In this document: in pieces, positions 1 through 17,865 of the stretch | Layout of the letters: every line of letters starts with the position of its first letter | How positions within the stretch are numbered: position 1 is the stretch's first letter | NCBI GenBank assembly: GCA_014382245.1 | Contig: JACNKC010000057.1 | Coordinates: 174 to 64,173 of the forward strand | Length of the DNA stretch: 64,000 nucleotides | Direction: 5' to 3' | Source: Pseudomonadota bacterium | GTDB taxonomy: Bacteria > Desulfobacterota > Binatia > UBA1149 | Translations under genes and position numbers: made by a program | Notes under the pieces: model-generated | The model's database searches: none | Told to the model about the DNA's origin: nothing | What the model saw: only the letters and a program-made list of their open reading frames with translations

Positions 1-14
1 GCGTTCGGGGGGGG

Positions 15-917
15 TCAAGCCCCGCGGATGAACGAAGAGATCGCTCGCAGCGGCTGCCGAGGGTAGACCTGCCCCTGCTTGGGCGGCATGGAATTGTAAA
101 CGTAATCGAGCTCCAGGTCGGATAGCAGTCGACCCCGGTGCCGCCAGGTACCCCGTACGAGTACGCTCTCCATGTCGAGATTGATGGCAAACACTGACAA
201 TTGCTGACCGGGTCGAGGGGGGCCTGAGCTTGCCCCTGCCGGTGTACCCGACATCAACAGCCGGCCGCTATTGGCGGCGGTGCATGGCAGGGGAAGTGAT
301 AGGCGGGGGTAGCCGTTGTCGGCTATCCAGGATGCGAACTTGAGTGTTCGTGGAGATCGTAGCAGTCGCTGTGCCCAGTTAGACAAGGCCGGGACGCTGC
401 CGGCGTCGCTCACCCGTAGTGTTCGAGCAGCGGCCAGCGCGCCGGCACCAAGCGCCAGGCGCAGCCTGGGCAGCGCGTGGTTCCCGGCGTAGTGAACGAG
501 GTCCAGGTAGTGGACAGTGTGCACGCCGAAGTAGGCGTTGTAGCGAAACATGGGTTTACTGTTGTAAGCGTCGAGGTCGGCGCCCCCGCTTGCCTTCTCC
601 GCCCAGTGCGCCGTACCGCTCCAGCAGCGGCCCCTGCTGTTTACTATCATGAAGGCCGCGCGCGGGTCCGATTGCAGGTGACTCTTGCCCAGCCCCTCGC
701 AGAACTGACCGAACATGAGCCGCGTGGGATCCTTGGCGTTGAGCGAGGTGATGAGCGTCACGTGGGGCAGCCCCTCGGGATCGCGGGTGGCCAGCAGCCC
801 GATTTTGGCGTCGACGCCAAACGCGGCCATGGCGGCTTGGTCCAGGGCGAGAGGGGGAGTAAGCCCGTCGCGGTCGCCGTTACGTGTGGGCACAGTCTTG
901 TTGCTCCTGTTCATCAT
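15..917 (-). CDS. hypothetical protein, possibly PNPOx-like FMN-binding split-barrel protein; last gene of the GRE operon
   Basis: 300-aa ORF. Its start overlaps the activase stop (ATGA at 914-917). Weak resemblance to pyridoxamine-5'-phosphate-oxidase-like flavin-binding proteins (PEGLPHVTLITSL... region). No stronger family call possible by eye. Confidence 0.4.
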   Translation of the reverse strand: MMNRSNKTVPTRNGDRDGLTPPLALDQAAMAAFGVDAKIGLLATRDPEGLPHVTLITSLNAKDPTRLMFGQFCEGLGKSHLQSDPRAAFMIVNSRGRCWSGTAHWAEKASGGADLDAYNSKPMFRYNAYFGVHTVHYLDLVHYAGNHALPRLRLALGAGALAAARTLRVSDAGSVPALSNWAQRLLRSPRTLKFASWIADNGYPRLSLPLPCTAANSGRLLMSGTPAGASSGPPRPGQQLSVFAINLDMESVLVRGTWRHRGRLLSDLELDYVYNSMPPKQGQVYPRQPLRAISSFIRGA

Positions 918-2020
918 CGTGCTGCTGGTGGCCTGGGGGTTCTCGCTCCAGTCTGTTTGCCGCCCGGATCACAGGGTACTTTCACCGGGCCGGTCACAAC
1001 GATCTTGTCGCCGTCCAGGCCGCACGAATGTGCCACCTGCTGCAGGTTTTCGAGCTCCCCGGCTGCCATGGTCTCGACACCTTCGAGCTCCCACCGGTTT
1101 CCCAACCGTCGGTACTTGTCGCCGGCCATGTTGTTGAAAGCGAGCAGCTCCCAGCGAGTGACGACGTCACCCAGCTTGCCGGCGATGAACTCTCCCAGCC
1201 CGCGCAGGTTTTCTTCGTTGGCGGTGAGCCCCGGCACCAGCGGCGTACGAATCCACAGAGAATCCCGCCTTTGCTGCTCCCTGAATCGCTGTGCGAGGGC
1301 CAGCACGTTGCGTAGGATTTCGTGGTTGGAGCGGCCAGTGAAATCCGCGTGGCGCGCAGAATCTATTTCCTTGAGGTCGTAGAGCACCAGGTCGGCGTGT
1401 CGCGTTGACCGCTCCAGTGCCTGCCACGTGCACTGCCCGCAGGTGTCGATCGCGGTGTGAATGCCTCGCTCGCGGCAGAGCCGCAACAGCTCGGAAGTGA
1501 ACGCGGGTCTAAGCGAGGGTTCACCGCCCGAGACGGTAACCCCGCCGCCCGAGCAGCCGTACCAGGCCAGGTCGCGGACGACCTCGTCGAAAACGTCGGC
1601 AGCCGATCTCCGTTGTCCCAGCAGTTCGAGCGCTGCCCAGGGGCAGGCGTCTGTGCACGCGGCGTTGCAGCCGTTGCCAGCGCTGCAAAGGGCGTGATCG
1701 ATGTGGATGGTGCCGCCCGTCGCTGTTAGTGCCCCTTTCAAACAGGCATCCTGGCACGGTGTAAGCGCTGGCCTGGCGTCGCCGTTGCTCCCGGTCGTGT
1801 TCTCCCGGGGTATGCACCCGCTGCACCTGGATTCGTGCCACGCCACGCACGTGGCCGACTCCACGCTCTCGGGGTTATGACACCACGTGCACTCCAGGCT
1901 GCAACCCTTGAGAAACACGGTCGTGCGTATGCCCGGACCGTCCTCGGTGGACATTCGCTGCAGGTTGAGCACCGTGGCCTCCGTGTTGTCACGGGCGGTC
2001 GACTGCCGGGAAACCATCAC
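914..2020 (-). CDS. glycyl-radical enzyme activating protein (radical SAM, PflA/PFL-AE family, ferredoxin-insert subtype)
   Basis: N-terminal CSLECTWCHNPES radical-SAM CxxxCxxC motif. Two extra Cys-rich ferredoxin-like clusters (CSGCIPRE..., CSAGNGCNAACTDACP). GGVTVSGGEP SAM-binding motif. Sits 10 nt downstream of the GRE gene. Confidence 0.85.
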   Translation of the reverse strand: MMVSRQSTARDNTEATVLNLQRMSTEDGPGIRTTVFLKGCSLECTWCHNPESVESATCVAWHESRCSGCIPRENTTGSNGDARPALTPCQDACLKGALTATGGTIHIDHALCSAGNGCNAACTDACPWAALELLGQRRSAADVFDEVVRDLAWYGCSGGGVTVSGGEPSLRPAFTSELLRLCRERGIHTAIDTCGQCTWQALERSTRHADLVLYDLKEIDSARHADFTGRSNHEILRNVLALAQRFREQQRRDSLWIRTPLVPGLTANEENLRGLGEFIAGKLGDVVTRWELLAFNNMAGDKYRRLGNRWELEGVETMAAGELENLQQVAHSCGLDGDKIVVTGPVKVPCDPGGKQTGARTPRPPAAR

Positions 2021-2030
2021 CGGGTCTACG

Positions 2031-4550
2031 CTAGGAATGCGCCTCCCTGGCTATGACTTCGTCCTGCAGTTCGCGGCCTATGCTGGTGAAGTAGGCGTTG
2101 TAGCCGGTGACGCGTACCAGCAGGTGGCGGTACTCGCCGGGGTTGAGCTGGGCGTCGCGCAGGGTGTCGGTGTCGATCACGTTGACCTGCAGGGCAGTGC
2201 CCCCGTTTTCGCAGTAGCCACGAAGAAACCCCTTGAACTTTTCGCGGTGCTCTGCGTCGCGCAGCAGCGATGGACTGAAGCTCATGGTATGGCTGGCGCC
2301 GTTGGGCAACGAGTTGCGGTAGTCCTGCCAATCTCCGTCGCTGCCCCGTCCACCCAGCGCCTGGCCAACCGAGTTGACGTTGGCCGTGGGGCCACTGGTA
2401 TCGGCGCCGTTGGACGGGCAAATGGCGTTGGACAGGAACCTGCCCCGCGGTCTTCCGTCGGCGCTCGCCGCCATGACGTAGCCGCCGTCCACCCAGTAGT
2501 TCCAGCTGAGCATGCCGGGACGAAAGCGCCGGCCGGTGCTGACCGTGCTGTGCTTCCAGGTTTCATCGGTCCACAGGTCCATCACGGCGCAGGCCATGGC
2601 GTCGGCCTCCTGTTGGTCGCGGCCGTACTTGGGCGCGCGCCAGCGGGCCCAGGCCTGCAGGGTCTCGTGCCCGTCCCAGTTGTCGCGCAGGGCCGCGGTC
2701 AGCTCCTCCATCGAGCACAGACCGCGGTCGTAGACCAGGTACTTTATCGCGCACAGCGAGTCCACGGTGGTGGCGAAGGTTACGCCCTCGAGCGTGGTAA
2801 GGTTGATCTCGGCGCCGCCGCGGGTGACGTCGGTGGCCGTTTCGGCGCAGCCGCCCACGAGGCAGGACAAGTAGGGCGTGGGGCTGAAGCGGGCGCGCAG
2901 GCTCTCGGTACGTTCGTAGAGGTCAACGCAACGTTGCACGATGAACTCGTTCTGCCTGCTGTAGGCCGCCCAGAAGTCTTCCCAGCGATCGAACTTCCCG
3001 GCGTCACCCGTGCGCGGGCCGTCTCGGCTGATTTCGCGGGACTCGCCGGTCACGGCGTCCATCGCGGGGGCGAGATCCTCGCCGCCTGTAAGCGCGAGTT
3101 CAACGGCCTTGAGCAGGTTGAGGTTACTGTCAACGGTTCCTGAACGGTCGTTGCCCACCATGGTGTTTTCCAGGCAGCCAACCGGCGCGTACTCGTGGAC
3201 GTTGTCCTCGTTTACGAGGTGCTGGTAGCCGGCCTCGGCGGCTTCGCGCATCATACCGGCCATGGATCTCTCGTCGAAGTTGAGCAGGAAGGGCGATCCG
3301 TGGCTGCGCGAGATCATGTCGACCACGGTGTCGAGCAGGCGGTTGGGAGAACCGCGGTGCAGCCGTACACTCGGCTTGGGCTCCAGTATGGGGCTCATCT
3401 CGTCGATGACCTCGAGGATGGCGTAGGTCAGGTCGTTGGTCGTGTCGACGCCCTCGGCTCCAATGCCCGAAAGCGTTATGAGCTGGCCGAAGCCGGAGGT
3501 GATTCCCTGGTTGCCGCCGATTTTTATCATGGCGTCGTAAGCCGTGTTGGCGTGTACCCAGAAGCAGCGCAGGATTTCTTTGCCGAACTCGCGATCCATT
3601 CCGTTCTCGATCGAGCGGCGCCAGCAGGGGTAGAGGTACTGGTCTACGCGGCCGAAGCTCAGGCCGGGGCCGGGGTAGTTTTCGTCGCTCATCACCAGCA
3701 TGTGGGTGAGCCACAGGGATTGTACTGCCTCCCAGAAGTTACGCGCGGGAAGCCAGGGCACGCGTTCCAGGTTGCGGGCCATGTTCTCGAGCTCCGCCCG
3801 GCGAGCCGGGTCGGCTTCGTCGCGGGCCTCGTCGCGGCAGCACCCGGCGTATTTTCCGGCCAATTCCCCGGGCATGAGAGCAGCAGTCATCATGGCGCGC
3901 AGTTGCGAGCCGGGTTGGCCGTTTTTAGCAGCGTGGTCGAGTGCGTCGTAGCGTTGTTCGAGGTCGCGGTGGATGGCTCCCCAGCCATGCTCGATCACCC
4001 GTGGGTAGTCGGGTAGCAAATGGCCGGAGGTAGCACCCGTGTTGCCGTAGCCGTGCTCGTGGAAATCCTTGATCGCGGCTCTCGTGCCGCGCGGGCCGTT
4101 GACCTCGGCATCGCGTCGACGGGCTTCCTCGCGGTTCCAGCAGCGCGAGGCGAGCAGGTTGAAGCGGGCCCCGGCTATGAGATCACCGGGCAGTATTTCC
4201 CGCGGCAACCTGTTGACCATTATTTCGCGGATCAGCCACGCGCGGCGCTCGGCGAGCCCCCGTTGCCAGAAGTCATCGGGCAGATCGACCCTGCGCGCAG
4301 CCTGCAGGGTGGAAGAGCGGAACGGTTGAAAGAACGCGTAGGTCTCCGGGACGATGTAGTAGGTGGTCTCGTCGTAGACCACGTCCCAGTCGGTACCGGT
4401 TGTCCAGCAACTGAACTCGTTGTTCCACTCGCGGTCTACGCCGCGAAAGTAGTAGTCGCGCAGCCACTGTGCGCGTGGGGACAACGCGCGGGGCGCGGGT
4501 ACAGCGGGTTGCTGTTCGCGGTGATTCGTTGCGTGTGCTGATCCTGCCAT
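2031..4550 (-). CDS. glycyl radical enzyme, PFL2/glycerol-dehydratase-like (eliminase-type) family, substrate unknown
   Basis: 839 aa. C-terminal glycine radical motif RVTGYNAYF. Catalytic Cys loop VGCLENT with Glu at +2, as in GRE dehydratases/lyases/decarboxylases (CutC, HypD, IslA, glycerol dehydratase, HPD) and unlike the PFL CC motif. Adjacent activase. Confidence 0.85.
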   Translation of the reverse strand: MAGSAHATNHREQQPAVPAPRALSPRAQWLRDYYFRGVDREWNNEFSCWTTGTDWDVVYDETTYYIVPETYAFFQPFRSSTLQAARRVDLPDDFWQRGLAERRAWLIREIMVNRLPREILPGDLIAGARFNLLASRCWNREEARRRDAEVNGPRGTRAAIKDFHEHGYGNTGATSGHLLPDYPRVIEHGWGAIHRDLEQRYDALDHAAKNGQPGSQLRAMMTAALMPGELAGKYAGCCRDEARDEADPARRAELENMARNLERVPWLPARNFWEAVQSLWLTHMLVMSDENYPGPGLSFGRVDQYLYPCWRRSIENGMDREFGKEILRCFWVHANTAYDAMIKIGGNQGITSGFGQLITLSGIGAEGVDTTNDLTYAILEVIDEMSPILEPKPSVRLHRGSPNRLLDTVVDMISRSHGSPFLLNFDERSMAGMMREAAEAGYQHLVNEDNVHEYAPVGCLENTMVGNDRSGTVDSNLNLLKAVELALTGGEDLAPAMDAVTGESREISRDGPRTGDAGKFDRWEDFWAAYSRQNEFIVQRCVDLYERTESLRARFSPTPYLSCLVGGCAETATDVTRGGAEINLTTLEGVTFATTVDSLCAIKYLVYDRGLCSMEELTAALRDNWDGHETLQAWARWRAPKYGRDQQEADAMACAVMDLWTDETWKHSTVSTGRRFRPGMLSWNYWVDGGYVMAASADGRPRGRFLSNAICPSNGADTSGPTANVNSVGQALGGRGSDGDWQDYRNSLPNGASHTMSFSPSLLRDAEHREKFKGFLRGYCENGGTALQVNVIDTDTLRDAQLNPGEYRHLLVRVTGYNAYFTSIGRELQDEVIAREAHS

Positions 4551-4566
4551 CGTCGTTGTTTCCTTG

Positions 4567-7479
4567 TCAGGCCGAGGCCATCTCGATCCGTGTCTCGCGG
4601 TCGCTCTGCCCGGGTTGCAGCGAGGCTGGTACCGGTCTCAAGTGATTGTAGCCGCCGGCCAGCTCCACCGGGTTGAGCGGGCTCGGTAGTACGTTGCGGT
4701 AGCCCTTGCCGCCGGGAAACTGGTAGTCCTCCCAGGCGTGGTAGAGGATCACCATGCCCGGGCGCACCGCGTTCGATAGCCGGGCCTTAACGCGGAACTC
4801 GCCCAGGTCGTTGAAGAGGCGCACCGTGTCGCCGTCCTTGATGCCGCGGCTGCGCGCGTCGGGTGCCGCTACGAAGGCGGCCGCTTCTCCGCGCTGCAGT
4901 TGCAGCAGCAGGTCGAGGTTGCGCCAGCCGGCGTGGATGCTCCAGCGGGTGTGGCCGCCGCTGAGCACCAGCGGGTAGTCTCCCCCCGGTCGGGGTACGG
5001 GCAGGTGGGCAGGCAGTTCCTGTCCGAGTTCGAGGTACAAGGGGTGGTCGATGTAAAACTGCACCCTGCGGGTGAGCGTGGGCCAGGGGCCGGGATTGCT
5101 GCGACGCCAACCGCGGTTGACCACCGGTTGGTCGGGCGTCACGTCCGTGGCATTGCCCAGGTTGAAAGGGTGCGTGCCTATTCCGGTTATTCTTTTGAAG
5201 CCATCGTGCCGGAGTTCTTCGAAACCGCCGTCCACGAAGCCGGTCTGTTTTACTATTTCGTGTGCGACCTGCGATTGGGCATGTTCGTCGAAGCGGCCGT
5301 TGAAGGTAAAGCGATGGCCGAAATCATCGAGTCTCTGCTCGTTGCCGTGGCGGTCGCGAAAAGAGGAGACGCCCCGTTCGCGCGCGCGTCGTTCCACCCA
5401 CCGGGCCAGCTCCGCGTGCATGTTCCACTCGGGCTTGCACTCGCCCAGGGGTTCGACGGCCGCCTGGGTGATGTGCAGGTAAGGTGAAAGCAGCGTGAAC
5501 CAGTTGGGTACGTCGTCTTTTTCGTAAGAAGACGCGCCTGGCAGCAGTATGTCGGACTGCAGGCAGGTGGTCGACATGCGCAGGTCGCAGGTGACTACCA
5601 GTTTTATTTTCGGCCAGGCCGTTTCGAGCAGGCGTTGCGCGCTACGCAGGCGCCTCAGTAAATTGCTGCCCGCGACCACGAGCACCCGCGGGGGATCTGC
5701 CGGCGGGCGCTTCTGCCAGTTGTTGTTGTAGGACTCCTCGACGTACTCGTCGATGGGGCGGGGCAGTCGCCTGCCGTGCTCGCCGTCGGTCACCCGGGAC
5801 AAACCGCCGTGGCGTCGCCAGTAAAGCACCGACGATACCACCGACGAATCGTTCATGTAGTCGCGAAAGGCGTCGTATACATAGCGCTCGGTACTGTCGC
5901 CCGCCAGTCGCCGGCCGAGCAGCGCGGGTAGGTGCTTGAGCTTGGCGGCCAGTCCCTCCCACTGGCTGGCGCCGACGGAATCCATGCCCTGCGTCCACAG
6001 GAACGGAGTTGTGTCGAAGCCGGCGCCCGGCTTTCCCACGTGCCCGCCCAGCATGAAAAGCAGCAGTTGCGCCCGCATGATGATGTCGCCGTTGTAGAGC
6101 TTGGGAATAGACGAACCGGCTACGCCGGCCATGGCGCGTGCCCCGGCCACCATATCGGCGAAACGGTGGATGGTTTCAGCCGAGCAGCCGCACAGCTCTG
6201 CCGCTTTTTTGGGCGTGTAGTCCGCGTCGAGTCGCTGGCGCAGGATTTCGAGTACCGGGCGCACGCGGACCGGTCCGTTGTTGGTGCTTACCGTGTAGTT
6301 GCCCTCGAGCGCGGGCGTAACCCCTGCCCAGTCCAGGTCGAAGGGAGCGGGGGAGGGCAGGCCGAGCGAGGGATCCCAGGCGTAGAACTGTTCCTGGCGG
6401 CCGCCTGTGACGAGATCGCTTTCGCGCAGGTAGTGGCCGTCGTCTTTTACCAGCAGTACGAGGTCGGTCTGCGAGCGTACGAAGTCAGCGTCTATGCTGC
6501 CTCGTTCCAATAGTACCTGGCAGGCGGCCAGGGCCAACGCGGCGTCGGTCCCGGGGCGCACGCCTATGAACAGGTCGCTGTGGATGCTCGAGGCCGAGTA
6601 GTCGGTGGCGATGGTGACCACGCGGGTGCCGTTGTAACGGGCCTCGTTGATGAAGTGGGCATTGGGAATCTGCGTGTAAACGGGGTTCGCACCCCAGACC
6701 AGTATGAGATCGGAGTGGAAGAAGTCGTCGGCCGAGCGTGACGATACCGGTGTGCCCATGGTCACCGCTGCGCCGGCCTGCCCGTCGTCGAGCTCGGTGT
6801 TGGTGTCGAGCTCTATGCCGTCGAGCATGTCGACCAGGCGCTGCACGCCCAGCCTCCACGTGGCCGACGCCAGGCTGCCACCGGGCTCAAGGGCCACCGA
6901 GTCGGGACCGGCGAGGGTCACCGCGTCGATGAGCTGGTCGGCGGTCTCGCGGTAGGCTTCGTCCCAGCTGATGCGCTTCCATTTGCCCGAGCCTCTGGGC
7001 CCGACACGTCGCAGCGGGTAGCGCAGGCGGTCGGGCGCGTACATGAGCGCGGAGTAGCAGGCGCCTTTCTGGCAGCCGCGGGGATTGAAGTCGGGTACCT
7101 CGTCGTTTACCGCGGGGTACTCGCCGGCCTGTTCCTCGCGCACGACCACCCCGTCGCGCACGTAGACGTCCCAGGAGCAGTTGCGCTGGTACCAGCAGTT
7201 GACGACGTGCGTACAGCGCACGCGCTTGTCCCAGGCAAGCCGTTGCAGGTAGACGTCCTTCCAGTCGCCGTAGCCCCTTGCTGGAGCGTGGGGCGCGACC
7301 GTACTCGCGGTTGACGTTTCGTATTGGCCGGCATCGCGGTGGCAAGCCGGGACCAGCCCGCCCAGCACGAGGATTGCTGCGCCGCTGCTGCCGCGCCTTA
7401 CGAATTCACGCCTGCTTATTGTTGTTGCCACGCTCGCATCCGTGCCACGTCGGCGCGGGGTGTCGCACACCCCACGCAT
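4567..7479 (-). CDS. Tat-exported molybdopterin oxidoreductase catalytic subunit (DMSO reductase superfamily)
   Basis: 970 aa. Twin-arginine motif SRREFVRRG followed by a hydrophobic stretch ending VPA. N-terminal Cys/His cluster CTHVVNCWYQRNC for an FeS centre. Molybdopterin dinucleotide-binding family length and architecture. An alternative GTG start at 7431 would give MATTISRREFVRRG, a canonical Tat signal. Confidence 0.75.
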   Translation of the reverse strand: MRGVCDTPRRRGTDASVATTISRREFVRRGSSGAAILVLGGLVPACHRDAGQYETSTASTVAPHAPARGYGDWKDVYLQRLAWDKRVRCTHVVNCWYQRNCSWDVYVRDGVVVREEQAGEYPAVNDEVPDFNPRGCQKGACYSALMYAPDRLRYPLRRVGPRGSGKWKRISWDEAYRETADQLIDAVTLAGPDSVALEPGGSLASATWRLGVQRLVDMLDGIELDTNTELDDGQAGAAVTMGTPVSSRSADDFFHSDLILVWGANPVYTQIPNAHFINEARYNGTRVVTIATDYSASSIHSDLFIGVRPGTDAALALAACQVLLERGSIDADFVRSQTDLVLLVKDDGHYLRESDLVTGGRQEQFYAWDPSLGLPSPAPFDLDWAGVTPALEGNYTVSTNNGPVRVRPVLEILRQRLDADYTPKKAAELCGCSAETIHRFADMVAGARAMAGVAGSSIPKLYNGDIIMRAQLLLFMLGGHVGKPGAGFDTTPFLWTQGMDSVGASQWEGLAAKLKHLPALLGRRLAGDSTERYVYDAFRDYMNDSSVVSSVLYWRRHGGLSRVTDGEHGRRLPRPIDEYVEESYNNNWQKRPPADPPRVLVVAGSNLLRRLRSAQRLLETAWPKIKLVVTCDLRMSTTCLQSDILLPGASSYEKDDVPNWFTLLSPYLHITQAAVEPLGECKPEWNMHAELARWVERRARERGVSSFRDRHGNEQRLDDFGHRFTFNGRFDEHAQSQVAHEIVKQTGFVDGGFEELRHDGFKRITGIGTHPFNLGNATDVTPDQPVVNRGWRRSNPGPWPTLTRRVQFYIDHPLYLELGQELPAHLPVPRPGGDYPLVLSGGHTRWSIHAGWRNLDLLLQLQRGEAAAFVAAPDARSRGIKDGDTVRLFNDLGEFRVKARLSNAVRPGMVILYHAWEDYQFPGGKGYRNVLPSPLNPVELAGGYNHLRPVPASLQPGQSDRETRIEMASA

Positions 7480-7600
7480 CTACGTGGCGGGCAAGGGCAA
7501 CAAGGGCAGCGGAGCGGAAGCCAGTATATTCGACCTGGCCGGCTATGACAACGCTGAATGGGTGACAGTCTTCCCCCGCGATATACGGCCCGGCCAGTTG

Positions 7601-8848
7601 TCAGCGCAGGTTGGCCAGGTCGATGCTCTTGGGGAAAATCCCGCGGTTGGCGCGGTCGCGCTCCTCCAATCGCTCAATTTCAGCTTCGGGCAGGCCGGCT
7701 TCGGCCATCAGTTCACGGGCGTGCTCTCCTAGCACTGGAGAGGCTGAGCCCAGCCCGGGCTCCTGCCCGTCGAAGGCCAGCGGCGGTCGCGGCAAGCGGC
7801 AGCTTCCGCCCTCGGGGTGCTCGGCTTCGACCAGGGTGTTGCCGTGTCGGACCTGGGGATCCTCGTGAACGCGGTTCACCGGGTTCACCCGGGCCGAGGG
7901 CACGTCAAGCTCGTCGAGCAAGCGGCACAGCGATTCGGTGTCGCGGTCGGCGAGTACGGCGTCCATCTCCTCGGCCAGCTGCTGCCTGTTGGCCACGCGC
8001 CCCCCGAAATTGGCAAACCTGGGATCGGCGTGCAGCTGGCAGCCAAGCGCCTCGCACAGGGCGGCAAAGTCGCTGTCGACTATCAGTATGGTCGACACGT
8101 GGCCGTCGCTGGTGGCAAACAACGGGAAGTAATCGGCAAGTGCCCCCTGTTCGTTTATCTCGTCGCCCAGCAGGGTGTGCTGCCACATGGCGTCGGGCCA
8201 CAGGAAGTACAGCCCCGCGTCCATCATCGACACGGGCAGGAACTGGCCCCGGCCGGTACGCTCGCGCTGAAGCAGCGCTGCGGTTACGGCCTGGGCGGCC
8301 GTCATGCCCGAAACCTTGTCGAACAGCACTGTGCGCACGTTGGCCGGCCTGTCGCCGCCGCCCTGCGCCCCGGCCATGCCGATGGTGGCCTGTACCAGGG
8401 GATCGTACACGCGGCGGTGGACGTAGGGCCCCGACTGCCCGTAGCCAGTGATAGACCCGTAGACGAGGCGGGGATTGACGGCTGCCAGCGACTCGTAGTC
8501 GACACCCAGCTTTGCCGTGACCCCGGGGCGGTAGTTTTCGATAAGCACGTCGGCGGTTTCTACCAGACGCCGCAGGATGGCCGCGTCGTCTGCCTGCTTG
8601 AGGTCCAGGGCTATCGAGCGCTTGTTGCGGTTGAGCACCGAGAACTGTGCGGCGACCCCGTTCCGGTTGTTGCCCATGAAACGCGCGAGGTCACCGGTAC
8701 CCGGCGGCTCAACCTTGACCACGTCGGCGCCCTGGTCGGCCAGTATCATGCCGGCAAGCGGACCAGACACAGTGGAGGTGAGTTCGATGACGCGGTAGCC
8801 GGCCAGCGGCCCAGCGACGGTACGTTGACCATATCCTTTATTCGCCAT
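7601..8848 (-). CDS. CoA-transferase family III (CaiB/BaiF/Frc-like)
   Basis: Conserved N-terminus MANKGYGQRTVAGPLAGYRVIELTSTVSGPLAGMILADQGADVVKVEPPGTGD typical of family III CoA transferases. The ORF track extends 188 aa further upstream (to 9412) with low-complexity sequence and no homology, so I set the start at the internal ATG at 8848. Confidence 0.8.
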   Translation of the reverse strand: MANKGYGQRTVAGPLAGYRVIELTSTVSGPLAGMILADQGADVVKVEPPGTGDLARFMGNNRNGVAAQFSVLNRNKRSIALDLKQADDAAILRRLVETADVLIENYRPGVTAKLGVDYESLAAVNPRLVYGSITGYGQSGPYVHRRVYDPLVQATIGMAGAQGGGDRPANVRTVLFDKVSGMTAAQAVTAALLQRERTGRGQFLPVSMMDAGLYFLWPDAMWQHTLLGDEINEQGALADYFPLFATSDGHVSTILIVDSDFAALCEALGCQLHADPRFANFGGRVANRQQLAEEMDAVLADRDTESLCRLLDELDVPSARVNPVNRVHEDPQVRHGNTLVEAEHPEGGSCRLPRPPLAFDGQEPGLGSASPVLGEHARELMAEAGLPEAEIERLEERDRANRGIFPKSIDLANLR

Positions 8849-8933
8849 GGGGGTAATATTTTGACTCGCCCACGCTGTGTCCAATCCCGAAAGTGGGTTA
8901 TCGGACGCTTCCCCCTTTTGATAGGGTTCGCGC

Positions 8934-10700
8934 ATGCTCCACGCGATTCCGGGTTGGCGCCAGCATAAGCTGGCTGTTTCGGTGATCTGCGTGGCTCTTA
9001 CCGCCGCTGCTGCTTGCACGCGGACACCGGCTACCACGGTGTTCGTGGCCCGTAGTGTTGTGACCATGGACCCGGCGAATCCACGGGCCGAGGCCGTGGC
9101 GGTGGCCGAGGGAAAGATCCTCGCGGTGGGCAGTCGCGAGGAGCTCTCGCCGCTGGCCGGCTGCAAGGGCTGCGTGATCGACAAGCGCTTTGCCGACGAT
9201 GTGCTGTTGCCCGGCTTCGTGGAGAACCACCTGCACCCCGACATGGCAGCCATGCTGCTGGCGTTACCGATAACGGCACCGTTTGACTGGGAACTGCCGG
9301 GCGGAACGATCAAGGGCATACGCGGCAGGCAGGCTTTTCTCGACAGGTTGCGCGAACTCGATGCCGCTCTTGGCGACGGCTCTCTTGAAGACGGTGGCCA
9401 GCCGCTGATCACCTGGGGCTACCACGATTTCTTTCACGGTGCGGGACTCGACCGAGACGCGCTCGACGCGGTGTCGACCACGCGCGCAGTGGTGGCCTGG
9501 CACCGTTCGTTTCACGAGGTCATAGCCAATTCGGTCGCGCTCGAGTGGATGGGAGTCACCCGCGAGACGGCGGCGCGGCTGCCCGGTGTCGCTTTGCGCG
9601 CAGACGGCGAGCCCACCGGCCGCCTGTCGGAGCTGGGGCTGCTGGTCGCGCTCGGTACGCTGTCCCCGGTGGTGCTGGGCGAAGAGGCCATGGATCGCGG
9701 TCACTCCATCGTGCGGCAGATGATACACCGCGGCGGCATCACCACGGTTGTCGACATGGCCTACGGCATGTTCAGCGACGAGCGCGAGTGGCCGATTCTC
9801 AAGCGCAACCTCGACCGCGACGACGTGCCTTTTCGCACCCGCCTGGTGCCTCTGCCCTTCGCCCTGGGACGCGAGTGGGGCGAGGATCTGTTCGACAGGG
9901 TAGAGGCCCTGCCGCAACGCAACAGTGAGCGCCTGGCCTTCGTGCGGCAGGTCAAGATGATAGGAGACGGCGCGTTCTTTTCCCTGTTGATGCGAATGCA
10001 ACCGCCGGGATACCTGGAGGGGGGAGTGGGCGAGTGGAACACCGAGCCGGGGCGCATGGTCGAGGGTCTCGCGCCCTGGTGGAAAGCGGGCTACCAGCTG
10101 CACGTGCACAGCAACGGCGACGCGGCCCAGGTGGCGGTGCTCGACGCGCTCGATCAGCTGCAGGCCGAGCACCCGCGAGAGGATCACCGCTTTACCTTTC
10201 ATCACTTTGCGCAGGCGCGCCCGAACGAGCTGGATCGCATGGCCGCGGCCGGTGCGTTGGTGTCAGCCAACGTGTACTACAACTACTTCATGGCCGACAT
10301 TTACGCCGAGCGCGGGCTTGGCCTGCCGCGCGCCGAGAAGATCACGCCGCTGGGGTCGCTGGTCAAGCGCGGGGTGAAGGTGTCGCTGCATTCCGACCTG
10401 CCCATGGGGCCGGCGCGCCCGCTGCTCGCGGCCTGGGCCGCTGCCACTCGGCTGACCCATGAAGGCAAGACCCGTGGCGCCGACGAGGCGCTTACCCCGG
10501 GGCAGGCCCTGCTCGCGATCACCAGCGACGCGGCCTACGCGGTGGGTATGGAAGACGAGGTTGGCAGCATACGAGTGGGCCTCAGGGCCGACTTCGTGGC
10601 GTTGCCCGACGATCCGTTGTCGGTGGAGCTAGACGAGTGGCCCAACATTATCCCGGTGGCCACCGTGCTCTCGGGTAAAGTTTACCCGGTCAGGCAATAG
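8934..10700 (+). CDS. amidohydrolase family (amidohydrolase-3 type metal-dependent hydrolase), probable lipoprotein
   Basis: Signal peptide with lipobox-like LTAAAAC. HLHPDMAAM metal-binding motif and VHSNGDAAQ motif typical of amidohydrolase_3 proteins. Divergent from the CoA-transferase gene. Confidence 0.7.
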   Translation: MLHAIPGWRQHKLAVSVICVALTAAAACTRTPATTVFVARSVVTMDPANPRAEAVAVAEGKILAVGSREELSPLAGCKGCVIDKRFADDVLLPGFVENHLHPDMAAMLLALPITAPFDWELPGGTIKGIRGRQAFLDRLRELDAALGDGSLEDGGQPLITWGYHDFFHGAGLDRDALDAVSTTRAVVAWHRSFHEVIANSVALEWMGVTRETAARLPGVALRADGEPTGRLSELGLLVALGTLSPVVLGEEAMDRGHSIVRQMIHRGGITTVVDMAYGMFSDEREWPILKRNLDRDDVPFRTRLVPLPFALGREWGEDLFDRVEALPQRNSERLAFVRQVKMIGDGAFFSLLMRMQPPGYLEGGVGEWNTEPGRMVEGLAPWWKAGYQLHVHSNGDAAQVAVLDALDQLQAEHPREDHRFTFHHFAQARPNELDRMAAAGALVSANVYYNYFMADIYAERGLGLPRAEKITPLGSLVKRGVKVSLHSDLPMGPARPLLAAWAAATRLTHEGKTRGADEALTPGQALLAITSDAAYAVGMEDEVGSIRVGLRADFVALPDDPLSVELDEWPNIIPVATVLSGKVYPVRQ

Positions 10701-11775
10701 CAGCGGCAAGCGCGGCGGCGGCATCGGCCATGGCCTGGCGCGCCCCGCGGCTCACCTGGGTGGTGTTGGCAAAGCCGTGCACTTGGCCTTCGACACGGCA
10801 CAGCGTTACCGGCACTCCGGCCAGTTCGAGTCGCTCGGCGTATGCTTCGCCCTCGTCTCTGAGGGGGTCGAAGCCGGCCGTGGTGACGTAAGCCGGTGGC
10901 AGGCCCGAAAGGTCTTCTGCCAGCAGCGGCGAAGCCGAGGGGTCTTCGACGGCCTGCTGGCGGTCACCCGTGTAGTGGCGGATGTACCACTCCATCTGCG
11001 AGGCGGTCAGAAAAAAACCGTCGGCGAACAAGCGGTACGATTCGCTGCGGGCCGACAGGTCGGTGACCGGGTAGATTGGCAGCTGGAAGGCCGGCGAGGG
11101 TCCGCCGTCGCGCGTGGCGCGCAGCGAAACCGAGGCCGCCAGGTTGCCACCGGCGCTGTCGCCGCCAACCGCCACCCGCGATGCGTTGATGGCCAGGCGC
11201 TCGGCGTTTTCGAGCGCCCAGCGAAACGCCGCCAGGGCGTCGTCGGTCGCCGCCGGAAAGGGATGTTCGGGGGCCAGCCGGTAGTCCACCGATAATACCT
11301 TGACGCCGGCCTTCTCTGCGAGGAATCGGCAGGGCTGGTCATGGCTGTCGATGCTGCCCACCACCCATCCTCCACCGTGGTAGTAGACCAGCAGGCCGCC
11401 GCCATCGGCGCAAGCGTGGGGCACGTAGAGTCGCGCGGCGAGTTCGCCGTCCGCGCCAGCGCAGGAGAGTTCCTCGACGCGTTGCATGGCTATGGGTTCA
11501 CCGCTTGCGACAGCCGCGCCGCTTTCGATGTGCTGCCGTACCTCGGCCACGGTCAGGTCGTCGTATGATGGGTGATCGTCGAACGACATCGCGAGCAGCA
11601 GCAGTTGCACGTCTGCGTCCAGCGTGAGGCCATCCACGCGGGTGGAACTGCCACCGGCGAGCAGGAGCTGCAGGCGTTCGGGCAGAGCCATCATCGATCG
11701 CAGCAACAGGCGTTGGGCTTTTTCAGCGAGGCCGAGCGGGCGTGGTTCCATGGTGGTCATCCTCCGCGGCAACAC
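10690..11775 (-). CDS. alpha/beta hydrolase, HSL-type esterase/lipase (alpha/beta hydrolase fold-3)
   Basis: YYHGGGWVVGS oxyanion-hole motif and GDSAGGNLAA nucleophile elbow (GxSxG). Confidence 0.8.
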   Translation of the reverse strand: MLPRRMTTMEPRPLGLAEKAQRLLLRSMMALPERLQLLLAGGSSTRVDGLTLDADVQLLLLAMSFDDHPSYDDLTVAEVRQHIESGAAVASGEPIAMQRVEELSCAGADGELAARLYVPHACADGGGLLVYYHGGGWVVGSIDSHDQPCRFLAEKAGVKVLSVDYRLAPEHPFPAATDDALAAFRWALENAERLAINASRVAVGGDSAGGNLAASVSLRATRDGGPSPAFQLPIYPVTDLSARSESYRLFADGFFLTASQMEWYIRHYTGDRQQAVEDPSASPLLAEDLSGLPPAYVTTAGFDPLRDEGEAYAERLELAGVPVTLCRVEGQVHGFANTTQVSRGARQAMADAAAALAAAIA

Positions 11776-11852
11776 GATTACGATATCGCGGAGGGCGAGA
11801 CCAGGGCCGGCGGGTAGTTACATATCGGGGACAAGATGATAAAAGGCTTGGG

Positions 11853-12674
11853 GTGGAAGTTCTTCTTACAGGCGCGGCCCTCGGGGCCGAAGTAAGGGGG
11901 CTTGATCTCACCCGCGAATTGACGGGTACAGAGTTAGCAGCGGTGACGGCGGCGCTGGTCGAACACAAGGTGCTGTTTTTTCGCGACCAGCCTCTTGGGC
12001 CGGCCGACCACCACCGCTTTGCGTCATACTTCGGGCCGCTGCAACGCCACCCCGCGTTTCCGCACGTGGACGACTACCCCGAGCTCACCATACTCGAAAG
12101 CGACCGCGCGCGTCCTTCAAAAATAGACAAGTGGCACTGCGACATGACTTACCTCGAGTGCCCACCGCTGGGCAGCGTGCTCAGGGCTACCGTCATTCCT
12201 GACAAGGGCGGCGACACGATGTGGATGAATCTCGAGGCGGCCTGGCAGGCGCTGCCCCTGGACTTGCAGCAAAGGTTGGCCCAAATGCAGGCCGAGCACA
12301 GCTTTGCGCATGGCTACCGAGAGAGCCTGGCCGAACCCGGCGGCAGGGACCGTCTCGCGCGGGCCGTGGCCGACAACCCGCCCGTGCTGCACCCGGTGAT
12401 GCGTCGTCACCCGGTCAGCAAGCGGCCCTGCTTGTTCGTCAACAGCCTGTTCACCACGCGCCTGCTTGGCATGGAAGAACGCGAGAGCGAGCAACTGCTG
12501 GCGCGGCTGTACGCGCACATCGAGAAGCCGGAGTTTCGGTACCGCTTCAGTTGGGAGGTCGACTCGATCGCTTTCTGGGACAACCGAGCCACGCAGCATA
12601 AGCCGGTACAGGATTGGTGGCCGGCGCGGCGTTGTCACCAGCGCATTACCATAGAGGGCGACAGACCGGTGTGA
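11853..12674 (+). CDS. TauD/TfdA family Fe(II)/2-oxoglutarate-dependent dioxygenase (taurine dioxygenase-like)
   Basis: WHCDMTY (HxD iron ligands). N-terminus EVLLTGAALGAEVRGLDL matches the TauD start. I chose the GTG at 11853 preceded by AAAAGG; the ORF track starts at 11742 and would overlap the convergent esterase. Confidence 0.7.
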   Translation: MEVLLTGAALGAEVRGLDLTRELTGTELAAVTAALVEHKVLFFRDQPLGPADHHRFASYFGPLQRHPAFPHVDDYPELTILESDRARPSKIDKWHCDMTYLECPPLGSVLRATVIPDKGGDTMWMNLEAAWQALPLDLQQRLAQMQAEHSFAHGYRESLAEPGGRDRLARAVADNPPVLHPVMRRHPVSKRPCLFVNSLFTTRLLGMEERESEQLLARLYAHIEKPEFRYRFSWEVDSIAFWDNRATQHKPVQDWWPARRCHQRITIEGDRPV

Positions 12675-13426: not shown

Positions 13427-14848
13427 TTGAACAGCATAGACGCTACGGTCAACGAAGTCCTTGGTCCCCTGGCCGACGCCATGGCCGCGGTAGTTTTCTA
13501 CGCTGTACCCATAGGCGACGCGCAGGTGCCGCTCATCGTGGCCTGGTTGATAGGCGCGGGCCTGTTTTTCACCTTCTACCTGCGCTTCATCAATTTTCGT
13601 GGCATGGCCGAGGGCCTGCGCATAGTTAGCGGCAAGCGCCGCTCTCCGGGTTCGAGCGGGGAGATCAGTCCCTGGGGAGCGCTTTCGACGGCAGTGTCGG
13701 GCACCGTGGGCATTGGCAACATAGGCGGCGTGGCCGTGGCGATTTCAATGGGTGGCCCCGGGGCCACCTTCTGGCTGCTGGTGGCCGGGCTGCTGGGCAT
13801 GGCCAGCAAGTGTGCCGAGTGCGTGCTGGGGGTACGCTACCGCCAGGTCGACGAGAACGGCCAGGTGTCGGGCGGCCCGATGTACTACCTGCGCGAGGGG
13901 TTCGGCGAGCGCGGCTGGCCGCTGGTGGGCCGAGCCCTGGGTGGGTTCTACGCGGTGGCCATCGTGCAGGGCTGCCTGGGCGCGGGCAACATGTTCCAGA
14001 GCAACCAGGTTTTCGAACAACTGCTGGTCGTGACCGGCGGTGCCGACGGCCCCATGGCCGGGCACTCACTGGAGGTGGGCCTGCTGCTGGCCGTGGCCGT
14101 GGGCCTGGTGCTGGTGGGCGGCATACAATCCATAGCCCGTGTCACCACTCGCCTGGTGCCGTTCATGGCCTTGTTCTACTGCCTGGGCGCGCTGTTGGTC
14201 ATCGGCCTTAACTTCGACAAGGTCCCGGGCGCGTTTGCTTCGATATGGCACGGGGCGTTCTCGCCCGAGGGCATAAGCGGCGGCGTGCTGGGCGTGATGA
14301 TGCTCGGGTTTCGCCGCGCGGCTTTCTCAAACGAGGCTGGACTCGGCTCGGCAGCCATCGCCCACTCGGCGGTAAACACCCACCACCCTGCTACCGAGGG
14401 CCTGGTCGGCTTGCTCGAACCGTTTATCGACACTGTCGTGATCTGCACCATGACGGCGCTGGTTATTCTCACCACGGTGTACGAACCATCGCTGGCGGGC
14501 AGCGGCGTGCAGGGCGTGGCGCTTACGTCGCGTGCTTTTGAGAGCACGCTGTCGTGGGCGCCGGCAGCCGTTGGCCTGGCCGCGCTGCTGTTCGCGTACT
14601 CCACGATGATCGCCTGGGGTTACTACGGGCTCAAGGGTTGGACCTACCTGGTGGGCGACTCGCGCGTGGCCGATCTTTCTTTCAAGCTGGTCTACTGCGC
14701 TTTCGTCGTGCTGGGCTGTGTGCTCGATCTTGACGCCGTGCTTACCATGTCCGACGCGCTGTTGTTCGTAGTGGCAGTGCCTAACGTCATAGGACTGTAC
14801 GTGTTGGCGCCGCGCATACGCGAGAGCCTCGACGACTACTTCTCCTGA
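13427..14848 (+). CDS. alanine/glycine:cation symporter (AGCS family amino-acid carrier)
   Basis: 473 aa polytopic membrane protein. Conserved AGCS N-terminal region (IGDAQVPLIVAWLIGAGLFFT, GPMYYLREGFG). Confidence 0.8.
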   Translation: MNSIDATVNEVLGPLADAMAAVVFYAVPIGDAQVPLIVAWLIGAGLFFTFYLRFINFRGMAEGLRIVSGKRRSPGSSGEISPWGALSTAVSGTVGIGNIGGVAVAISMGGPGATFWLLVAGLLGMASKCAECVLGVRYRQVDENGQVSGGPMYYLREGFGERGWPLVGRALGGFYAVAIVQGCLGAGNMFQSNQVFEQLLVVTGGADGPMAGHSLEVGLLLAVAVGLVLVGGIQSIARVTTRLVPFMALFYCLGALLVIGLNFDKVPGAFASIWHGAFSPEGISGGVLGVMMLGFRRAAFSNEAGLGSAAIAHSAVNTHHPATEGLVGLLEPFIDTVVICTMTALVILTTVYEPSLAGSGVQGVALTSRAFESTLSWAPAAVGLAALLFAYSTMIAWGYYGLKGWTYLVGDSRVADLSFKLVYCAFVVLGCVLDLDAVLTMSDALLFVVAVPNVIGLYVLAPRIRESLDDYFS

Positions 14849-14904
14849 GTGTTGCTGGCGGGTTTGCCTGAGGGTCGCGGGCGGGCTGTGCCCGTCCGCC
14901 GTGG

Positions 14905-16716: not shown

Positions 16717-16869
16717 GACCCACCGGGCGGAGGCTTGTCAAGGTTGTATCGTTAGGTGGTGGGTGGCTTTGTTGCCTTTACCGCCAATGAAGGTGACATT
16801 CTCCTGGCCGGGTATATTCCGGGTACCCGGGTCGCGAGCTCACGTGGCCCGGCGCAACTGGGGGAGCAC

Positions 16870-17865
16870 GTGGAGTATGCAGTAGTAGTCGGGGGAGGGC
16901 AGGTCGAGCAGGAAGGGCACGGCCTGGAGGCCTTTGTTGGGCAGGCCCAGCTGGCCGAGTCGCTGGGTTATACGACCGTCTTCGTGCCCGACCATTATCT
17001 TTTTGAACAGATGGGCGAGCTCAAGACCGAGCAGCCAACCTACGAGTTGTTTGCGCTGCTTGGTGCCATCGCCCAGCGCACGCGCAGCATCAAGCTGGGC
17101 AGCCACGTGGCCTGCACGCTGTTTCGTCACCCGGCCATGCTCGCTCGCCAGTTTGCCCAGCTCGACGAGCTCAGTGGAGGTCGCGTGATTGCCGGCGTGG
17201 GTGCGGGCTGGACGAGGTCCGAGTTCGAGATGTTCGGACTGGACTTTCCGCCGGTGTCCGAGCGCCTGCGTATGATGGACGAGGCGGTGGAGATCATGCA
17301 GGCACTGTGGACCGGCGAGCCCTGCAGTTTTGACGGCGAGCACTATCGCCTGCGCGACGCCGTGGCCAGGCCGACCCCGACGCAACAGCCGCGACCACCG
17401 CTGATGCTGGGCGGCGGTGGCAAGGGCATACTCCGGCGCGCCGGGCGCTGGGCCGACATCCTCCACATGGTGCCCGAGATCGGCAAGGCCGGTACGACCA
17501 CGATGGAGAACGTGTCCGCCTTTCACGACGACGTGGTGGCAGAAAAGCTAGCACTGGTGCGAGAGGAGGCCAAGGATGCCGGCCGGCCGGACGGTGCCGT
17601 GCGCTACGCTACGACGATTTTCGTTTACCAGCCCGCCGACAGTGAGAAGCAGGCCGCCGAGACCGCCGAGGGCGCGGCTGCCATGTTCGGGCTCACGGCC
17701 GAGCAGTTCTGCCGTCACCCGGCCGTGCTCGCGGGAACTACCGATCAGATGGTCGAGGAACTGCAGCGTCGTGAGCGCGTGCACGGATTGTCCATCGTTG
17801 CGCTGGAGGCGACCGGGCTCGACAGTATCCGCAATTTCGCCGAGCGTATAATCGCCAACGGCTAA
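16870..17865 (+). CDS. LLM-class (luciferase-like) flavin/F420-dependent oxidoreductase
   Basis: LGYTTVFVPDHY and the rest of the luciferase-like monooxygenase fold signature. GTG start at 16870 preceded by GGGGAG; the ORF track begins at 16756. Confidence 0.7.
   Translation: MEYAVVVGGGQVEQEGHGLEAFVGQAQLAESLGYTTVFVPDHYLFEQMGELKTEQPTYELFALLGAIAQRTRSIKLGSHVACTLFRHPAMLARQFAQLDELSGGRVIAGVGAGWTRSEFEMFGLDFPPVSERLRMMDEAVEIMQALWTGEPCSFDGEHYRLRDAVARPTPTQQPRPPLMLGGGGKGILRRAGRWADILHMVPEIGKAGTTTMENVSAFHDDVVAEKLALVREEAKDAGRPDGAVRYATTIFVYQPADSEKQAAETAEGAAAMFGLTAEQFCRHPAVLAGTTDQMVEELQRRERVHGLSIVALEATGLDSIRNFAERIIANG

Follow-up and report, generated by a model that had tools for sequence, protein, structure and literature searches.

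Based on translation, alignment and profile comparisons combined with an analysis of gene order in related loci, we conclude that the minus-strand gene at 2031..4550 of the window, i.e. the 64,000-nucleotide stretch of contig JACNKC010000057.1 (assembly GCA_014382245.1, a bacterium of the Binatia lineage) analysed here, encodes an oxygen-sensitive glycyl radical enzyme (GRE) that is predicted to be functional, belongs to the class with a Cys-x-Glu (C-x-E) catalytic loop and represents a large, deep-branching and uncharacterised family. The family is organized in a conserved module of a FadR-type regulator, present in part of the loci, the GRE, its activase and a tandem split-barrel protein. 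Regarding the reaction, we tentatively favour, at somewhat less than an even chance, a radical C-O-cleaving eliminase or isomerase that would convert a small hydroxylated metabolite to a carbonyl compound. The C-x-E loop itself, to which a first-pass annotation of the sequence had drawn attention, is correct but ordinary, and the value lies in the family and the module behind the enzyme.

Catalytic motifs, class and family

The reading frame is uninterrupted, starts with ATG and encodes 839 residues. With the PFL-like domain PF02901 detected at E=3.7e-109 and the glycyl radical domain PF01228 at E=4.1e-21, the assignment as a GRE is far beyond chance. Positions 3150-3200 of the minus strand translate as VHEYAPVGCLENTMVGN, in which VGCLENT corresponds to residues 457-463; the loop thus holds one cysteine, Cys459, without a neighbouring second one, and Glu461 at +2, bearing out the single Cys with Glu at +2 described previously. 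The segment 2082-2126 of the same strand translates as HLLVRVTGYNAYFTS and contains the C-terminal glycyl motif with Gly816. In the HMMER alignments the C and E columns are ungapped, vgclentmvg pairing with sgcvetgcfg of HypD, sgcieirmpn of IslA and mgcvepqksg of CutC. A MAFFT set including Clostridium butyricum glycerol dehydratase (GD, taken from a megaplasmid record), Escherichia coli YbiW, Klebsiella pneumoniae CutC, HypD and IslA equates C459/E461/G816 with C433/E435/G763 of GD, C441/E443/G786 of YbiW, C434/E436/G765 of HypD and C468/E470/G805 of IslA. The five characterised C-x-E enzymes hence pair with the loop without gaps, and the Glu stands in the structurally equivalent column, a point that the first-pass annotation had left to an alignment. 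Within the family, VGCLENT is found in 195/201 sequences, GC[LIVM]EN in 200/201 and GYNAYF in 198/201. All parts for glycyl radical catalysis are thus encoded, namely Gly816 in an RVxG motif, Cys459, Glu461 and an activase gene. A further cysteine, Cys711 in the motif NAICPSNGAD (approximately 2416-2445, minus strand), is invariant in the family; its column holds Ser in GD, YbiW, CutC, HypD and IslA, within a segment G-x-S-P-x-x-G-x-D. Being a second conserved Cys close to the core of the barrel, it could be relevant to redox or radical chemistry.

The enzyme is neither of the PFL nor of the X-succinate synthase type, as had been stated. The loop lacks the adjacent Cys-Cys of PFL, given as C418/C419 (PMC12338860), and the PFL model TIGR01255 scores only 71 bits versus a cutoff of 994, while the X-succinate synthases TutD (E=2e-42) and MasD (3e-41) are matched more weakly than HypD (2e-77). 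What the C-x-E pattern implies needs rewording, however. Its attribution to dehydratases, C-N/C-S lyases and decarboxylases agrees with a June 2026 review, according to which C-O eliminases, CutC and the C-S lyases all retain C-x-E with the Glu hydrogen-bonded to the substrate (PMC13450708), but it left out the isomerase class of HplG, YbiW and PflD, which likewise keeps the motif (PMC13450708). The ensuing prediction of an elimination or decarboxylation is in line with the eliminases being closest by E-value, and is too narrow in that isomerases also carry C-x-E. Nor does the Glu act as general base as a universal rule: the Glu of HypD serves to position the hydroxyl that departs. For HPAD (Cys503-x-Glu505) a reprotonation of the Cys by this residue is proposed, and IAD has a catalytic Glu502 (PMC13450708). 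The small polar substrate named in the first-pass annotation is likewise an assumption and not a demonstrated property. Since isomerases and decarboxylases share C-x-E with the eliminases, the motif alone cannot fix which of the three chemistries applies.

Comparison with curated models places the enzyme at a distance from every known class. The best NCBIfam score is obtained with TIGR01774 (PFL2/GD subfamily; 378 bits, cutoff 678), followed by the HypD equivalog NF043068 (346 bits, cutoff 1100), HpsG (340 bits, cutoff 1000), HpfG (316 bits), the CutC equivalog TIGR04394 (279 bits, cutoff 1050), PRK09983 for YbiW/PflD (236 bits, cutoff 1109), IAD (209 bits, cutoff 1100) and HPAD (162 bits, cutoff 1150). 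The best sequence matches in the Protein Data Bank (PDB) are HypD (2e-77), IslA (9e-75), CutC, Archaeoglobus fulgidus PFL2 (7e-73) and GD (3e-67), with weaker matches to AAD (8e-56), BSS (TutD), MASS (MasD), HPAD (9e-33) and PFL (5e-10). Identity to eliminases and isomerases is approximately 22-30%, at roughly equal distance to all, and reaches about 30% at most for any solved GRE. With every curated NCBIfam cutoff missed, the enzyme is, as judged from sequence, a member of no characterised GRE family, and its specificity is unassigned as previously noted, each equivalog cutoff being at least about three times the score obtained. An AlphaFold2 (AF2) model, built from family alignment A1 and used for the global fold match alone, is nearest to HypD, propanediol dehydratase (PD) and GD (template modelling score about 0.67-0.72, Foldseek); its mean predicted local distance difference test score (pLDDT) is 72, falling below 50 at residues 458-472 (Cys loop), 683-744 and 807-839 (Gly domain).

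Each of the characterised relatives resembles the enzyme in some respects and departs from it in others. HypD of Clostridioides difficile (PDB 6VXC/6VXE) shares C-x-E, the glycyl motif, the β1 histidine (His160, equivalent to His177) and the activase subfamily, and is the best match by sequence and by structure, yet is only about 23-30% identical and itself lacks the split-barrel partner that accompanies the family. GD (DhaB1, PDB 1R8W/1R9D) matches at His164/Cys433/Glu435/Gly763, equivalent to His177/Cys459/Glu461/Gly816, and GD and 1,2-propanediol dehydratase have the activase immediately downstream, as here, with an Fe-alcohol dehydrogenase (Fe-ADH) adjacent in some loci of the family; GD is however about 28% identical and differs in regulator type and substrate residues, and GD/PD loci lack the split-barrel partner whereas the family loci lack microcompartment genes. 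The YbiW/PflD isomerases, which cleave a C-O bond in anhydro-sugar phosphates, align at C-x-E and the β1 His (YbiW His165), and their chemistry of ketyl radical and C-O heterolysis is compatible with the enzyme, but YbiW is about 27% identical and its neighbourhood, with the activase upstream and a sugar phosphatase, is absent here. IslA/IseG/HpsG and CutC have C-x-E, similar scores (E 1e-75 to 1e-71) and the activase subfamily in common with the enzyme, their leaving-group residues not being kept and their equivalog cutoffs missed. A. fulgidus PFL2 (PDB 2F3O), a solved GRE with the top Foldseek identity (26%), is likewise environmental, non-gut and of debated function, but belongs to another clade. 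Small accessory subunit genes of the X-succinate synthase type were also looked for, and in 84 loci the GRE had no conserved family of small open reading frames (ORFs) as neighbour. A GRE of Pelobacter carbinolicus described as a putative ethanediol dehydratase (PMC3543383) was compared by gene layout alone; the layout differs, and this protein is a lead only.

The family is large and widely distributed. Searched at E<=1e-20, a protein database yielded 3,767 relatives. Their best 120 clusters, the self-match at 100% aside, are all 67-74% identical, measure approximately 835-856 residues and have either no name or a generic one; the entry for the identical protein comes from a 'Proteobacteria bacterium' metagenome-assembled genome (MAG). 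At least 589 genomes, with one per species scanned, encode a relative with an exact VGCLENTM or MLSWNYW. The best 80 of these are all MAGs, encode proteins 64-72% identical and come from Binatia, Myxococcota, Syntrophaceae, Desulfobacterales, Thermodesulfobacteriota and Anaerolineae as well as Spirochaetota/Leptospirales, Bacteroidales, Gemmatimonadota, Thermoanaerobaculia and one Clostridiaceae. Mean column identity in alignment A1 is 78%, and the signatures ENYPGPG, GNQGIT(S/A)G(F/Y)GQ, GCLENT..GNDRSGTVD, FRPGMLSWNYW, NAICPSNGAD and GYNAYF are each kept by 166-199 of the 201 sequences. The literature searched, which was incomplete and included the June 2026 review, contained no description of either this clade or its partner.

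A search of all 50%-identity representatives recovered the enzyme's own clade (clade A) through a representative that is 63% identical. The N-terminal ~170 residues specific to the family are shared by a few relatives at 32-49%, and all others (<=36%) align only from about residue 170. P0246 and P0248, 41-44% identical, retain all catalytic and signature motifs, and P0246 represents a second large clade (sister clade B) with proteins of approximately 790-800 residues from Asgard archaea (Jordarchaeales, Freyarchaeota), Nezhaarchaeales, Abyssubacteria, Bacillota and Dehalococcoidia, in which RVTGYNAYF is found in 103/120 sequences. In alignment A3, P0242 carries Phe instead of the catalytic Cys, P0260 reads GCPGN and has lost the glycyl domain, and P0244, P0247 and P0252 have neither the C-x-E loop nor a glycyl radical domain. 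These five proteins, within the 32-49% range and with the family N-terminus, appear to be decayed pseudo-GREs.

The conserved module and its split-barrel partner

Gene order was analysed by clustering 1,099 ORFs from 86 loci (species-genome loci, metagenome loci and the window) and verified by tblastn on 73 species loci; denominators count loci with room. In 62/63 loci the next gene downstream of the GRE, in the same orientation, is that of the activase, and a partner gene encoding approximately 285 residues follows it in 58/59; at the exception, L018, the partner stands at a greater distance downstream. A regulator of the GntR type, with FadR_C/FCD domains (Pfam), is found directly upstream of the GRE in 38 of 67 loci and is absent from the window locus. 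The conserved module accordingly consists of the FadR-type regulator, where present, the GRE, the activase and the tandem split-barrel protein, and no other gene family was conserved around it among the 1,099 ORFs of the 86 loci. In the window the activase reaches 277 bits with TIGR02494 (glycyl-radical enzyme activating protein; cutoff 174 bits). Two clade B loci have the triad of GRE, activase and partner as well, one in a Jordarchaeales MAG (L096, partner at 11322-12113) and one in a Bacillota MAG (L097, partner at 11535-12551). At L095, near P0246, the activase is divergently oriented on the opposite strand and no partner is nearby. A CrtI/carotenoid-isomerase-like FAD oxidoreductase of approximately 500 residues is a recurrent neighbour of the cassette, with six loci in three phyla (L053, L015, L030, L034, L036 and L042); at L053 the order is GRE, CrtI-like protein in the usual place of the activase, and partner.

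The partner has a weak Pfam match to PNPOx_N (E=4.9e-7) and none in NCBIfam. Its AF2 model (pLDDT 84.5) consists of two tandem split β-barrels, each of which matches HupZ, the Desulfovibrio vulgaris FMN-binding protein and F420/FMN split-barrel reductases (Foldseek). Judged from this model, the partner probably binds a flavin (or a tetrapyrrole); it may be an electron donor for the activase, or it may work on or together with the GRE. The most conserved segment is PMFRYN(A/S/T)YFG, which is predicted to be flexible or disordered (pLDDT <50 at residues 125-128) and in which P122, Y126, N127, Y129 and G131 are invariant even where overall identity drops to 21-25%, as in the partners from the archaeon and the Bacillota MAG. 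The string YNAYF is common to this loop and to the glycyl loop RVTGYNAYF of the GRE. The latter motif is specific to the GRE family, the five aligned reference GREs all having GYS. In a post hoc test, 0.2% of shuffled partner sequences shared any 5-mer with the 18-residue glycyl loop, and the partner residue that aligns with the radical Gly is Arg or Lys. The partner loop may mimic the glycyl loop, or the likeness may be coincidental, and we regard it as a lead, not a finding.

Beyond the core, the neighbourhoods offer weak clues. Genes that handle aldehydes recur, Fe-ADH and aldehyde:ferredoxin oxidoreductase (AOR) genes each standing beside the cassette in 4 loci. In Syntrophaceae, a glycerol kinase, GlpK (equivalog-level match), lies immediately upstream with or without GlpA; at L004 a glycerol-3-phosphate dehydrogenase gene follows GlpK, its stop codon overlapping the GRE start. 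Downstream, these genomes encode an SfMCT-type L-lactate carrier of the major facilitator superfamily (448 bits versus a 320-bit cutoff) and a dehydrogenase similar to glyoxylate/hydroxypyruvate reductase. Three Desulfobacterales loci form a same-strand array of CrtI-like FAD protein, FNR-like protein, ECH, ACAD, regulator, GRE and activase, continuing with partner, membrane protein, sulfatase, AOR, SCP2 and Fe-ADH. Other loci contain ornithine aminotransferase, P5C dehydrogenase, GMC oxidoreductases or a GltS-type symporter. The FCD regulator is nearest to NanR, FadR, PdhR, GlcC and LldR, which sense carboxylates or acyl-CoA. The regulator type and the Fe-ADH, AOR, GlpK and lactate-carrier neighbours weakly suggest, in that they would fit, the conversion of a small hydroxy-acid or polyol to an aldehyde, and it is plausible that a small metabolite with a hydroxyl and possibly a carboxyl group would yield an aldehyde or ketone. 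A specific substrate call from the neighbourhood was rejected, as the clues are lineage-restricted and mutually inconsistent across the 86 loci. No riboswitch was found at the Rfam gathering threshold in 13 loci (118 kb) or at E<=1 in the window at 1-12000, the matches being only a tRNA and one by chance. Formylglycine-type sulfatases (SGSH_C) stand beside the cassette in two unrelated lineages, the Binatia-like L091 and the Desulfobacterales L034, L042 and L083; L091 has an equivalog-level anaerobic sulfatase maturase (anSME) and a sulfatase next to the partner (13486-17201). The substrate may derive from a sulfate ester, or these neighbours may be there by chance.

Table 1. Features of the locus in the window, with the basis of each assignment.
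Feature	Position	Strand	Basis or detail
GRE, 839 aa, PFL-like barrel and C-terminal glycyl radical domain	2031..4550	-	ORF and Pfam
Cys loop VGCLENT	3162..3182	-	Cys459 at 3174-3176, Glu461 at 3168-3170
Glycyl radical motif RVTGYNAYF	2088..2114	-	Gly816 at 2103-2105
His177, β1 'common site', motif ATSGHLL	4020..4022	-	Alignment to GD His164, YbiW His165
Radical-SAM activating enzyme, 368 aa, Cys-rich ferredoxin-like insert	914..2020	-	TIGR02494
Partner, 300 aa, two tandem split β-barrel (PNPOx/FMN-binding/HupZ-like) domains	15..917	-	Pfam, AF2, Foldseek
Partner signature loop PMFRYNAYFG, residues 122-131	525..554	-	Translation, conservation, pLDDT
EbdA-like type II DMSO-reductase-family molybdoenzyme alpha subunit, 970 aa, twin-arginine signal	4567..7479	-	NCBIfam

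Active site, proposed reaction and alternatives

His177 occupies the column of the β1 'common site', which is Gln193 in IslA, Asp216 in CutC and His160 in HypD (PMC8473560), aligns with His164 of GD, His165 of YbiW and His160 of HypD, and is invariant in alignment A1. In GD, His164 has been proposed to donate a proton to the C2 hydroxyl as it departs (PMC13450708), and the H160Q exchange in HypD abolishes activity; a histidine at this position therefore favours C-O cleavage. From the alignment, the active site is predicted to be lined by His177, Pro295-Gly296, Thr351, Gln356 and Asn462, together with Thr472-Val473-Asp474, Asn476, Arg677, Gly679, Leu681 and Trp683. HypD Ser334, Tyr450 and Arg156 are replaced by Thr351, Asn476 and Ala173, respectively. 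The sulfonate of the C-S lyases is anchored by two Arg and one Gln (PMC13450708), and the corresponding IslA triad Arg189/Gln193/Arg678 aligns with Ala173/His177/Gly679. The predicted lining is unique to the family, and the substrate would accordingly not be one known for the characterised GREs.

Our proposal for the reaction is as follows, the steps up to hydrogen abstraction by the thiyl radical being drawn from knowledge of the GRE family. The activase would generate the radical on Gly816, from which the Cys459 thiyl radical would form, and this would abstract a hydrogen from the hydroxyl-bearing carbon of a small oxygenated substrate. Glu461 would accept the hydroxyl proton to give a ketyl-type radical, and the adjacent C-O bond would then break, with His177 assisting the departure of the oxygen leaving group. 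The product radical would finally regain a hydrogen from Cys459 and be released as an aldehyde or ketone, the net reaction being a dehydration or a YbiW-like isomerisation.

Several observations weigh against this proposal. None of the known GRE eliminases has a near-obligate, flavoprotein-like partner, which hints that the chemistry may differ. The AF2 confidence is low exactly at the Cys loop, β8 and the Gly domain, and as the model provides no active-site geometry, all residue equivalences rest on alignment. Essential residues of HypD are replaced, Asp278 by Pro295 and Thr645 by Trp683, with Asp339/Phe340 falling in a gap. At the positions His281, Ser282, Tyr339, Asp447 and Tyr640, which we take to be the relevant ones in the GD structure, the correspondence is also poor: His281/Ser282 become Pro295/Gly296, Tyr339 falls in a gap, Tyr640/Ser642 become Leu681/Trp683, and Asp447 pairs with Val473, Asp474 standing one residue later. 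A GD-like Asp was considered and dropped, as the anchors Gly440/Gly466 and Asn452/Asn478 span equal lengths and thereby fix Asp447 to Val473. In addition, no transporter or downstream enzyme is conserved beside the GRE across the loci, and the neighbourhoods beyond the four-gene core are heterogeneous and lineage-specific (glycerol, sulfatase, β-oxidation, ornithine aminotransferase, GMC), and may be meaningless for function. C-x-E combined with a β1 His is moreover a correlate and not proof, the β1 site being documented for only a handful of enzymes.

Among the alternatives, a heteroatom lyase of new specificity would follow the same ketyl logic but eliminate an amine, a thiolate or sulfite, or a phosphorus or phosphate group in the β position, for instance from 2-substituted alcohols of the ethanolamine, thioether or phosphoester type. 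C-x-E is common to CutC and the C-S lyases (PMC13450708), HpsG is the third-best NCBIfam model, the sulfatases, with or without anSME, recur in two unrelated lineages, and a cassette standing alone would suit a product that feeds straight into central metabolism, such as acetaldehyde. We nevertheless consider such a lyase unlikely, with the IslA triad exchanged, CutC Asp216 replaced by His177, a β1 residue of the kind found in C-O enzymes, and the CutC and HpsG models scoring 279 and 340 bits versus cutoffs of 1050 and 1000. An ordinary B12-independent glycerol or 1,2-propanediol dehydratase in unusual hosts has only a slight probability. The His/Cys/Glu set of GD is conserved, the structural search places GD and PD near the top, and the GlpK/GlpA genes upstream in Syntrophaceae and the Fe-ADH of the DhaT family type adjacent in four loci form an arrangement that mirrors dhaB1-dhaB2-dhaT of C. 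butyricum. However, the enzyme is only about 28% identical to C. butyricum GD, the five GD positions compared are not kept, TIGR01774 reaches 378 of the 678 bits required, microcompartment genes are absent, the regulator is of the FadR and not the PocR/AraC type, and GD and PD lack the near-obligate partner. A radical decarboxylase of the arylacetate or another type has a similarly small chance of being correct: HPAD and IAD do carry the catalytic Glu (PMC13450708), the family has hydrophobic or aromatic β8 residues (Leu681, Trp683) and a carboxylate-sensing type of regulator is common upstream, but IAD and HPAD score 209 and 162 bits versus 316-378 for the eliminase models, AAD (8e-56) and HPAD (9e-33) trail HypD (2e-77) in the PDB matches, and neither an HPAD-type small-subunit gene nor conserved aromatic-acid genes are present nearby.

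A different departure would be a three-component system with chemistry outside the known classes, in which the split-barrel partner is mechanistically required, either delivering electrons for a net reduction or, via its PMFRYNxYxG loop, gating radical installation or protection through the activase or the GRE. This we regard as quite improbable, although the partner equals the activase in how tightly it is linked to the GRE (58/59 loci), is kept in the sister clade across Bacteria and Archaea, and carries the YNAYF of the glycyl loop in its most conserved, flexible segment, while no characterised GRE has such a partner (review PMC13450708) and the extra Cys711 is invariant where the reference GREs have Ser. 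Flavin binding and physical interaction are predictions only, the shared 5-mer was noticed post hoc and has Arg/Lys at the position of the radical Gly, L095 has no partner nearby and its activase on the opposite strand, and the partner could be a simple flavodoxin-like reductant for the activase. If true, the system would span Binatia and Desulfobacterota to Asgard archaea, and a ubiquitous metabolite as substrate would explain why transporter and downstream genes are unconserved. A C-O-cleaving eliminase or isomerase remains the reading we tentatively favour.

Genomic setting and implications

In the window the GRE starts 17 nt downstream of the gene for an EbdA-like molybdoenzyme (TIGR03479, 797 bits and below the cutoff; EbdA, 552 bits). 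A promoter-like site is found only upstream of the molybdoenzyme (7551-7523, minus strand), and no minus-strand terminator-like site precedes the GRE. The two genes are probably co-transcribed in this genome, yet the molybdoenzyme lies outside the conserved module, and this layout occurs only on contigs carrying the identical protein. Adjoining beta or gamma subunit genes are lacking, and a periplasmic-type molybdoenzyme paired with a cytoplasmic GRE is an odd combination. Upstream of the molybdoenzyme lies a family III CoA-transferase (7601-9412, minus strand), whose true start is probably near residue 195 of the ORF; among NCBIfam models, that of succinate-glutarate CoA-transferase fits it best, with a score below the cutoff. 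Molybdoenzyme and CoA-transferase were considered as pathway partners and rejected, since they stand beside the GRE in no other species locus. A TauD-family Fe(II)/2-oxoglutarate dioxygenase is encoded at 11742-12674 (plus strand), and just beyond the partner gene the parent contig carries an alternative-complex-III-like cluster (L092, 17009-22520) with multihaem cytochromes, NrfD, a 4Fe-4S protein and a molybdopterin protein. The host is probably facultative or microaerophilic and not a strict fermenter.

In conclusion, anaerobic reactions that would otherwise be difficult are carried out by GREs, and whenever a new clade was assigned, a new pathway came to light, as for choline to trimethylamine, hydroxyproline, isethionate to sulfide and anhydro-sugar glycolysis. 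The family described here occurs in lineages of sediment, soil and wastewater, with a sister clade in Asgard archaea, and its split-barrel partner is possibly a new type of GRE accessory protein. Assignment of the substrate would probably uncover a widespread anaerobic reaction.

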